Below, in pieces: positions 1-3,000 of a stretch of DNA of 7,960 nucleotides. The stretch comes from a virus (Monodnaviria > Loebvirae > Hofneiviricota > Faserviricetes > Tubulavirales > Inoviridae): IMG/VR virus record IMGVR_UViG_2529292905_000001; one strand, written 5' to 3'. Made by a program: the position numbers. How positions within the stretch are numbered: the first letter of the stretch is position 1; each line of letters begins with the position of its first letter.

Positions 1-3000
1 GTGCTCATTTGCACGCGGTTTGCCAGCTTGAGTCTTCAACGCTGGGAAGATGCGGCAAACGGCAAATCGGCATACCAGCCAGCCTATATCCGTCATGCAC
101 AGGCCAATTATGAAAGAGGAGAAGCTTAAGTTCTGGAATCCTGAACGAATAACGACTACCGGAAAATCACTTCGTATCACTCAGATACGATTTAACATAA
201 TATACATTATGCGCACCAATGGTAAGGATGGCAGAATCTGGCGGGAATCGTTGACACTGGCCGTCAACTGGCTACTATCGACAGTGATTCAAAATCATCC
301 GTTTCTCCAAACGAATCAGAATCAAATGTCTGTCAGCAGTAAGTGAACGGCCTGACCTCACCAATCAGGCCTGTTCATCCAGTTAGTTGGTAAATCTGTA
401 CCTGATACACGAGAATCAAACACCACTTCTTCAGTGCCATCACCATGATGCCGGATAATCTGGTAACCGGATTGCGGGTTCTGGCTCTCAGCTTCATAAG
501 CAGCCCGGAATGCTGGATCTTTGAGAAGCATCACTTTCAGCTCCTGATGTGTCATGAATTTTTCCATGATAAGCCCCGATGAATGCTGCCGCGCCGAATC
601 AGCCATAACGCTGAAAATGGAAACTGTACGGCTTGGCCAACCCCGGACAGCAACAAAACAAGTTTTGTCACTGACCGGCGTTATCTTTCAAAACAGACAG
701 TTAACGATTTTTTGTCTGGTGTTTATGCGTGAAATTTCGTGCGTACGAAATTCACCACCAATAAACAAACGGACGATGACTGACCGGAAAAGCAATGCCG
801 TCAGCATCATGACCACGCATTACCTGATTGAGAAGCCTTCTGACTTCACGGCGCTCAGGCCTGGTCATCATCATATTGCGATACCAGGACGGCGATTTAT
901 CAAACCATCTGGCACAACTGGCAAAATGTGAACCTACACGACGATAAGACTTAAGGTGGCCACCGGGAAGTCGGTCACGCGCCTTATTTTTTACAGACAT
1001 AATAAATCCTCTAAGTAACTGAATACCTAGAAGATGTCGTACTGTTCATACCCCATAAAAGTTAACGCCATAATAAAAATCCATACAATCAGTTCAGGTT
1101 GTCCCGGAACAGTTCACCGCTCCTCGCGGCGCTGCGGGGCGTCGCCCTGCTCCGGTCAACCTTTCTGACCTGAAGCATCACCATAATATCAGTCTTGTTG
1201 CTTTCACTGGTACGGGAACCGAAGAAGCTCCAGCCGGAACTGGCCTTACTGTCTTTCTGTTCAGCAAGGCCACCAAGTAAAATAATATCACCATCTGCAA
1301 GGCTGACTTCGGTTGTTACATCACGCTTGATAAGGGTTGGCGAGTTATTGACGCCGGTTTCAGTGGTCACAAAGTTGGAAAGCTGCTGCTGAATCTTGAG
1401 ATCCATTGTCCGACTTTTGATTGATGGCGTCACGTTAAACAAAACACCGCTGGAACGATATTCAACGGATTGCGTGGTCGTATTGTTATTCACCGTAACA
1501 CTGCCCAGTACTGGCACATCAGAGCCGACTGAAAAAGACGCTGAGGCATTATTTTTTACCCGCAGTCGTGGCGCACTGACAACAGTAAAACGACTGTCGG
1601 TTTTCAGCAGATTGAAAATGGCATCAATGGAGCCGGTTCGAATATTGATAAAATTATCCAGTCCGGCAGCACCAACTGAAATATTGAATTTATCAGACAG
1701 AATTTTAGCCGCTAAAAGAATGCCGGAGCCGTCAGACTGCGAGGTCTGAACCTCAAAAACATAACCAGAAACAACCACTTCATCACTCATCGTATCCAGC
1801 GAAGTGACCAGTGTTTTCAGGATGGCGATATCCTCTTTCGTACCATAATAAACCAGAATATCACCGGTTCGATTGATGTAGTTGCTTGCCCCTGATGAAC
1901 CTTTTAGCGAATCGTCAGAAATCACGGCTCCACTGTTATTGAAGGAGCCTGAAACGTAGCCGCCAAGAATATCAGACAGGTAGGCAACAGAACGGTACTG
2001 AGGCGTATAAGTCCATGTAAAACGTGGCTTAACCGGCTCTTTCGGCGTATAGGGCGCGATAAAATCAACACCCTTTTTCGTCCATATTCGAATGTTCATA
2101 TTGCCAAGATAACGGGTTACAAATTCCCGTTCATCAATATCAGGTGTTAACCTGAATGTAATCATTCGTTCATCATTAACAAGCTGTGGATCTAGCATAT
2201 ACGGGACTTTAAGCACCTCACTGTAAATAAGAGAAATAGCCTCCGGTAGCTTGACTTTATTTAATTCAAGCTCTGCCCCTGCGAAAGCACATGAAGAAAA
2301 TAGTAGCGTTAATGCGAGTGAAATCTTTTTCATTATTTTTTCCCCGTATAAAGCGTCACACGCTCACCATCAATAATTCCGCTCATCAACATCCCTTTGT
2401 AATTAAAACTGGATGCAGGAACGGCACGCAAAACACCGGCACTGTTAACAAGAATCACAAACGCCCTGCCTTCACTGGTCATTCTCCCTGATATACGCCA
2501 CTCGGTTGAAAGTGGCGGTTCAGCTGGTTCTGAGGGAGTATCTGGTGCTGGAGTAGCAGCGGAAGAACGAAACATGGCCGCATCACGTACATCTGTTGTA
2601 GCCAAATCTGGCGAGGGATCGCTTCGGCCAAACGTGCTGAAAAATGAGTAAATCAGCCAGCCTGACCCGATAAACATCAATGGAAAAAGCACAAGAAAGA
2701 ACCTGACTTTGCCAGAATTCCAGATGCTCTGGCGTTTATCTGTCTGCTTTTCATTACCGTTATTTCCTTCATAGCTTTTGTAAAGTTCAAAAATATCAGG
2801 GTTATATTTATTGCGATAACTGGTGACGAGGTTGCTTTTATAGATTTTGTGGCCTGAATATACGTCAATGCAGTAATGATTATTCAGGCCCAACGCTTTC
2901 AGCTTGCGCATCCGGTAAGTTGTTTCTATTTTGTCTTTCAGAAAGCGAGCAATATTAGAAAGTGACTGATTTACAATAACCAAATCACAGCTAATACCCG

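Follow-up and report, generated by a model that had tools for sequence, protein, structure and literature searches.

The stretch of DNA analysed here (the window; 7,960 nucleotides of the Inoviridae record IMGVR_UViG_2529292905_000001) contains the known CUS-1/YpfΦ filamentous prophage inserted at the Escherichia coli dif site, and a gene on its minus strand, at 1089-2333, encodes a secretin of 414 amino acids. Secretins are 12- to 15-mer, detergent-resistant channels of the outer membrane. An earlier note on this DNA had proposed a phage-encoded secretin of the pIV type at 1089-2333, and the proposal is borne out by domain searches, a fold model and fold search, an alignment to M13 pIV, gene context, and the signature of purifying selection; we put the probability that the gene is the virion-export secretin (pIV equivalent) of the CUS-1/YpfΦ prophage at roughly 0.9. 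The finding is not new, since the phage, its secretion module, and the 414-amino-acid secretin have all been published. The YpfΦ “secretion” module, consisting of YPO2279 and YPO2280 and described by 2014 (PMC4266046), goes back in the literature to the 2000s, and the same protein, named GspD2, was modelled with AlphaFold and proposed to act with Zot in YpfΦ secretion in 2023 (PMC10354491), so that no new biology is involved.

The secretin and its domain architecture

The gene (1089-2333, minus strand) is an uninterrupted open reading frame (ORF) of 414 codons plus a stop codon, annotated at exactly the same coordinates in RefSeq for a 99.6%-identical E. coli chromosome, and it is the ortholog of YPO2280 (‘GspD2’). 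The earlier note had named a profile search for a secretin domain as the test of its claim, and the domain was detected: the Pfam Secretin model PF00263 matched residues 243-372 with an E-value of 1.3e-24 and a score of 87.1 bits, against a gathering threshold of 27.5 bits. PHROG 1012, annotated as ‘assembly (protein IV of M13)’, aligned with residues 1-394 of the protein over 402 of its 403 profile positions (E=5.8e-137). The secretin assignment is real and far beyond chance, and membership of the PF00263 superfamily is seen both in the domain score and in a modelled fold with periplasmic N domains.

The protein begins with a predicted signal peptide, MKKISLALTLLFSSCAFA (residues 1-18; 2280-2333, minus strand), with cleavage predicted before G19, which we identified by inspection and hydropathy: MKK is followed by the hydrophobic stretch ISLALTLLFSS and then by CAFA, with GAELE on the far side of the predicted cleavage site, and the mean Kyte-Doolittle hydropathy of residues 4-18 is 2.0. 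This layout is kept in 32 of 32 aligned relatives, and with the intact reading frame it upholds the description of a full-length secretin with a signal peptide. A liposecretin was considered on account of a loose lipobox (LLFSSC, residues 10-15), and the lipoprotein reading was rejected because Cys15 is not conserved in the relatives, which lack a conserved lipobox and have ordinary A-x-A-type signal peptides.

An AlphaFold2 monomer model built on the 32-sequence family alignment (mean predicted local distance difference test score, pLDDT, of 73; predicted template modelling score, pTM, of 0.48) divides the remainder of the protein into four main parts. An N0-like periplasmic domain (residues 22-109; 2007-2270, minus strand) was modelled as a mixed beta/alpha fold with a pLDDT of about 85-92, and its Foldseek matches are the N0/N1 domains of XcpQ, MxiD, and EscC. 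It is joined by a flexible linker (residues 110-159; 1857-2006, minus strand; pLDDT below 50 at residues 135-155), which is variable and gapped among the aligned family members, to a single N3 domain (residues 160-245; 1599-1856, minus strand) delimited from the AlphaFold2 secondary structure and aligning to the N3 domain of M13 pIV from residue 146 on. The secretin beta-barrel domain (residues 246-394; 1152-1598, minus strand) was placed by PF00263 and by alignments to Vibrio cholerae GspD and M13 pIV; it includes Gate 1, from G270 to G296 (1446-1526, minus strand), and the Gate 2 region at about residues 316-337 (1323-1388, minus strand). Little or no variation is seen across the family alignment at the two hinge glycines or in the block QQLSNF..T.TGVNNSPTLIKR. 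A Foldseek search of the PDB returned 42 matches at E<=1e-3 with a probability of 1.00, all of them secretins or secretin N-domains and including InvG, GspD, PilQ, BfpB, RcpA, and f1 pIV (7OFH).

A counterpart in layout is the pIV of f1/M13/fd (PDB 7OFH), which has the same succession of signal peptide, N0, linker, one N3, and double-barrel secretin domain, and a precursor of 426 amino acids compared with 414 here. As judged from the AlphaFold2 model and the alignments, the window protein resembles f1 pIV in being without N1, N2, a cap-gate insertion, or a canonical S domain. M13 pIV aligns with it over N3 and the barrel at 27% identity (BLASTP E=6e-17; hhalign probability 98.8%). In both systems gene I is followed at once by the secretin gene, the two overlapping by 23 nt in M13 and by 1 nt here. 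The protein thus combines the features of a pIV-type secretin, namely a compact N0/single-N3 architecture, the lack of a cap gate and canonical S domain, and a gene downstream of pI; it differs from f1 pIV in carrying a C-terminal tail of 20 amino acids and in a shifted Gate 1 arginine (Y292-R293), both of which are taken up below.

Prophage identity, gene context, and selection

A perfect copy of the 28-bp E. coli dif site, the target of XerCD, lies at 190-217 on the minus strand (28/28, 0 mismatches; 0 matches in 200 shuffles) and forms the junction of prophage and chromosome, in agreement with the earlier description of the element as a dif-integrating inovirus. To the left of dif is chromosomal DNA of the fimbrial ydeP-QRST neighbourhood, and to the right is a complete inovirus gene set. 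Beginning at position 203, the window (203-7960) is 99.56% identical at the nucleotide level to the YpfΦ prophage of Yersinia pestis NCTC5923 over 7,759 bp (7.76 kb), and the two secretins are identical at 411 of 414 residues (the differences being S5L, A20S, and F105Y) with 7 nucleotide differences between their genes. Because of the dif site at 190-217, the 99.56% identity, and the difference of only three secretin residues, the window is assigned to the CUS-1/YpfΦ (CUS-2) prophage, a lineage marked by near-identity across the core and by integration at the chromosomal dif, often in tandem.

PMC4266046 characterises YpfΦ as a filamentous phage of 8.7 kb, integrated at dif in tandem arrays and sharing 99% identity with E. 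coli CUS-1 over 7.1 kb. The window shares with YpfΦ of Y. pestis 1.ORI, the source of YPO2280/‘GspD2’, its gene order, dif integration, tandem arrays (PMC4266046), and near-identical core, and differs from it in its host, which is E. coli, and in the three secretin substitutions; the attL-side cargo ORFs that differ between CUS-1 and YpfΦ (PMC4266046) lie outside the window. CUS-1 of E. coli O18:K1:H7 (Gonzalez et al. 2002, as cited in PMC4266046) is, to the extent that this citation describes it, the same element in the same species and at the same dif locus beside ydeP-QRST, and no difference was detected in a comparison with the type strain made by description rather than at the level of alleles. 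A megablast search of the window against deposited phage genomes gave no match, CUS-1/YpfΦ not being a phage record in that collection, and a protein-level search of the phage collection retrieved metagenomic inoviruses only, none of them above 49% identity. Tandem arrays were found in E. coli CUWW06 (6358-19960; repeat unit of 9,566 bp) and in Y. pestis NCTC5923, where two prophage copies lie 8,742 bp apart, the length of the tandem repeat unit; in both arrays a dif with no more than 3 mismatches to the consensus occurs only at the outermost junction.

Directly upstream of the secretin gene and on the same strand is the pI/Zot-family assembly ATPase, its putative inner-membrane partner (2333-3358, minus strand; Pfam Zot E=2.2e-26), in which a Walker A motif, GIPGSGKS, can be read at residues 8-15. 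The stop codon of pI and the secretin ATG share one base (TAATG) and a GGGG run lies 8 nt upstream, an arrangement that would fit translational coupling of the two genes. We compared 80 related loci from species-representative genomes of Gamma- and Betaproteobacteria (Enterobacterales, Pasteurellaceae, Burkholderiales, and others). In 79 of them the secretin gene is immediately preceded, on the same strand, by a pI/Zot homolog, the sole exception being a truncated fragment; most also carry homologs of pVI, pIII, and pVIII, and many lie on contigs of 7-9 kb. No gsp operon context was found in these 80 loci.

The secretin gene is under purifying selection, with a dN/dS of about 0.1-0.2 (0.11 against a 78%-identical ortholog in Brenneria), and all of the family-invariant residues are kept in the window secretin. 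Among 5,426 complete E. coli genomes the gene is present in 104, UTI89 and NC101 among them, at a median of two places per carrier genome, and 95 of the 104 have it at full length.

Two kinds of rearranged secretin gene were seen alongside the intact ones. In 66 contigs, a recurrent in-frame deletion derivative inside a tandem array fuses residues 1-105 of pI to residues ~143-414 of the secretin (for example, E. coli SCU-101, 5001-6137); this copy is presumably defective in export, since it is without the membrane/periplasmic part of pI and without the signal peptide and N0 of the secretin. In E. coli and Klebsiella pneumoniae there are also Rep(gII)-secretin ‘fusion’ proteins of ~600 amino acids, which point to larger deletions, with loss of the entire structural module that separates the replication gene from the secretin.

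Virion export and competing explanations

By analogy with the Ff phages, the secretin precursor would leave the cytoplasm through Sec and lose its signal peptide of 18 residues, which is predicted from the sequence; the mature protein would then assemble into an outer-membrane multimer, with a fold taken from modelling and a stoichiometry that may be that of the f1 pIV 15-mer. The flexibly tethered N0 would cross the periplasm and meet the inner-membrane pI/Zot ATPase at its C-terminal domain, a contact expected from Ff phages, and the N0-like domain is accordingly the presumed pI contact surface, as in f1 pIV (PMC8563730). The resulting pI-pIV complex would form a trans-envelope channel through which single-stranded DNA (ssDNA) clad in coat protein could be extruded without lysis, its gate probably opening during extrusion of the filament, as Ff biology suggests (PMC8563730). 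YpfΦ itself makes secreted filamentous virions, and disruption of YPO2279 (pI) abolished particle production (PMC4266046).

Because the channel is encoded by the phage, the phage should need no host secretin of a type II secretion system (T2SS) or of type IV pili, unlike CTXφ, and export autonomy is a reasonable inference. CTXφ of V. cholerae is otherwise similar, being dif-integrating and XerCD-dependent, with tandem arrays, an RstR-like repressor, and a Zot/pI ATPase (PMC4266046); it has no secretin gene and uses the host's EpsD according to Davis 2000, as that work is cited in PMC8563730, which accords with the contrast drawn in the earlier note between CTXφ and this element with its own secretin. 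The dif-integrating inoviruses are thus of two kinds, CUS-1/YpfΦ with its own channel and CTXφ with a borrowed one, and the distinction matters for host range, YpfΦ passing between Yersinia and E. coli, and for envelope stress in lysogens of extraintestinal pathogenic E. coli (ExPEC) and Y. pestis. As the earlier note had pointed out, secretins can provoke a phage-shock (Psp) response, which is documented both for f1 pIV and for Yersinia secretins that are mislocalised (PMC3128695, PMC5596341), and Psp induction would be expected here if the secretin were strongly expressed or mislocalised, as with f1 pIV.

Several points weigh against virion export as the role of this secretin, or against its close likeness to f1 pIV. 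The secretion gene that was disrupted in YpfΦ is YPO2279 alone (PMC4266046), and the effect may be polar or may come from pI alone; a literature search on YPO2280 turned up no study of a secretin mutant. Confidence in the monomer model is modest (mean pLDDT 73, pTM 0.48) and its Foldseek TM-scores to multimer subunits are low, although a monomer model set against subunits taken from 15-mers and other multimers is expected to score low. The N0 cannot be aligned by sequence to that of f1 pIV, so the pI-N0 contact rests on fold and context only. At Gate 1, G270 and G296 align with the f1 pIV hinge glycines G267 and G297 (PMC8563730) and are invariant in the 32-member family alignment; the column that holds the Gate 1 arginine in f1 pIV (Arg293) and V. 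cholerae GspD is occupied by Tyr292, with Arg293 following one residue later. This Y292-R293 pair (1455-1460, minus strand) is itself invariant across the 32-member alignment, and in the alignment to f1 pIV, f1 Asn269 corresponds to Asp272 and f1 Asn295 to a serine; given the shift of the arginine by one residue, the Gate 1 hydrogen-bond network may differ from that of f1 pIV. The channel may also depend on a host pilotin or on the BAM machinery.

A T2SS origin is the explanation that existing annotation would favour, in that RefSeq names the product of 1089-2333 ‘type II secretion system protein GspD’, the PDB sequence matches of the protein, which include f1 pIV (7OFH), are headed by T2SS GspD secretins, and PMC10354491 describes the protein as T2SS-secretin-like. 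It would then be a host GspD, or a second one (‘GspD2’), exporting host or phage-encoded proteins rather than virions, which we consider very unlikely. The NCBIfam GspD equivalog model TIGR02517 scores 103.9 bits against a cut-off of 351.35 bits and matches only at profile positions 311-585 of 600, in its C-terminal part, whereas the pIV profile of PHROG is matched at full length. What the protein shares with GspD/PulD/EpsD is the secretin domain and the N0/N3 fold; it falls short of the N0-N1-N2-N3 plus S domain architecture, encoded in a gsp operon, that belongs to T2SS GspD, having 414 amino acids and one N3, without N1, N2, the cap-gate insertion, or a canonical S domain, and the stretch from N3 to the inner barrel takes ~31 residues here as against ~77 in V. 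cholerae GspD (~45 shorter). Its neighbours in the related loci are inovirus gene sets with pI/Zot directly upstream, not gsp genes. Because a score of ~104 bits lies so far below the 351-bit equivalog cut-off, “GspD” is a loose name, one systematically misapplied in many genomes to inovirus pIV-type secretins, and it could inflate T2SS counts in genome surveys.

Even less credible is a decaying prophage remnant whose ORF is non-functional in E. coli lysogens, an account to which the pI(1-105)-pIV(143-414) in-frame fusion, lacking signal peptide and N0 in its 66 contigs, and truncated copies in a few genomes lend some weight; the copy in the window is full length and 411/414 identical to that of the virion-producing YpfΦ, and intact copies in 95 of 104 carriers, the low dN/dS, and the retention of every family-invariant residue are at odds with decay. 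A functional secretin that is not autonomous, and whose C-terminal tail recruits a host pilotin-like lipoprotein for targeting to the outer membrane, is unlikely and has little support. Conners et al. speculate that phage secretins hijack host pilotins, and the C-terminus of f1 pIV is functionally sensitive (PMC8563730), which would suit the subclade-specific tail with its predicted disorder and short helix. Yet most relatives have no such tail, f1 pIV manages without a phage pilotin or S domain of its own (PMC8563730), Pfam, PHROG, and NCBIfam searches found no pilotin gene in the prophage, and the transfer of YpfΦ between Yersinia and E. coli K-12 (PMC4266046) argues against a narrow host-factor requirement. 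Export of virions through a phage-encoded secretin remains the reading that we prefer.

The tail itself, SRATPRSAARSGELFRDNLN (residues 395-414; 1092-1151, minus strand), has a pLDDT below 50 and is predicted by AlphaFold2 to be disordered apart from a short helix at residues 400-404. Its motif, PRSAARSG-LF, is confined to a subclade of CUS-1/YpfΦ, Brenneria, Phytobacter, and Pectobacterium versatile, the other relatives ending after the last beta-strand. A canonical S domain, as labelled in a figure of PMC10354491, was rejected for this region, in which only ~23 low-confidence residues follow the barrel and are absent from most relatives. Two further ideas are improbable in our estimation: that the tail recruits a host pilotin or lipoprotein, or that basal secretin expression from the array underlies the effect of CUS-1 in ExPEC and of YpfΦ in plague. 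Were the former true, the tail would be a minimal S-domain-like peptide for outer-membrane targeting; were the latter true, the tandem array would lead by way of outer-membrane permeability or Psp priming to the modest effect reported on fitness and virulence; and in either case the phage secretin would have a host-facing role beyond virion export.

Other genes of the window

The remaining genes were assigned mainly by Pfam and PHROG profile searches. At the right end, the divergent gene for an RstR-like helix-turn-helix (HTH) repressor, homologous to YPO2273 (7514-7960, plus strand; Pfam HTH_3, PHROG 3557; role per PMC4266046), ends with its stop codon at the end of the window. The minus strand then carries, in order, the gII/X replication protein (6290-7342), the G5P ssDNA-binding protein (5961-6278), a small membrane protein (5707-5958), the major coat protein (5439-5672), the pIII-like adsorption protein/puvA of 570 amino acids (3662-5374), and the pVI-like DUF2523 protein (3362-3649), which is followed by pI and the secretin. 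The longest ORF of pIII-like/puvA gives 570 amino acids from the ATG at 5374, compared with a RefSeq product of 520 amino acids from a downstream start; its true start is uncertain because the RefSeq start lies downstream and PHROG 3942 aligns from residue 28.

On the 3′ side of the secretin, a packaging-signal or terminator hairpin like that of the Ff phages was sought and rejected (fold z-score of −0.30, no inverted repeats), and a terminator-like match was no better than in shuffled sequence. Between the secretin and dif are two small minus-strand ORFs, one at 752-1000, with no Pfam, NCBIfam, or PHROG family, and one at 358-606, with a PHROG family of unknown function and no Pfam or NCBIfam family. 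Their positions match those of YPO2280a and YPO2281, which have been placed next to attR (PMC4266046), and they sit where ctxAB sits in CTXφ. Homologs of the small ORFs lie beside related secretins in Brenneria, Xenorhabdus, and an Enterobacteriaceae metagenome-assembled genome, and both ORFs occur together in three loci besides Y. pestis.

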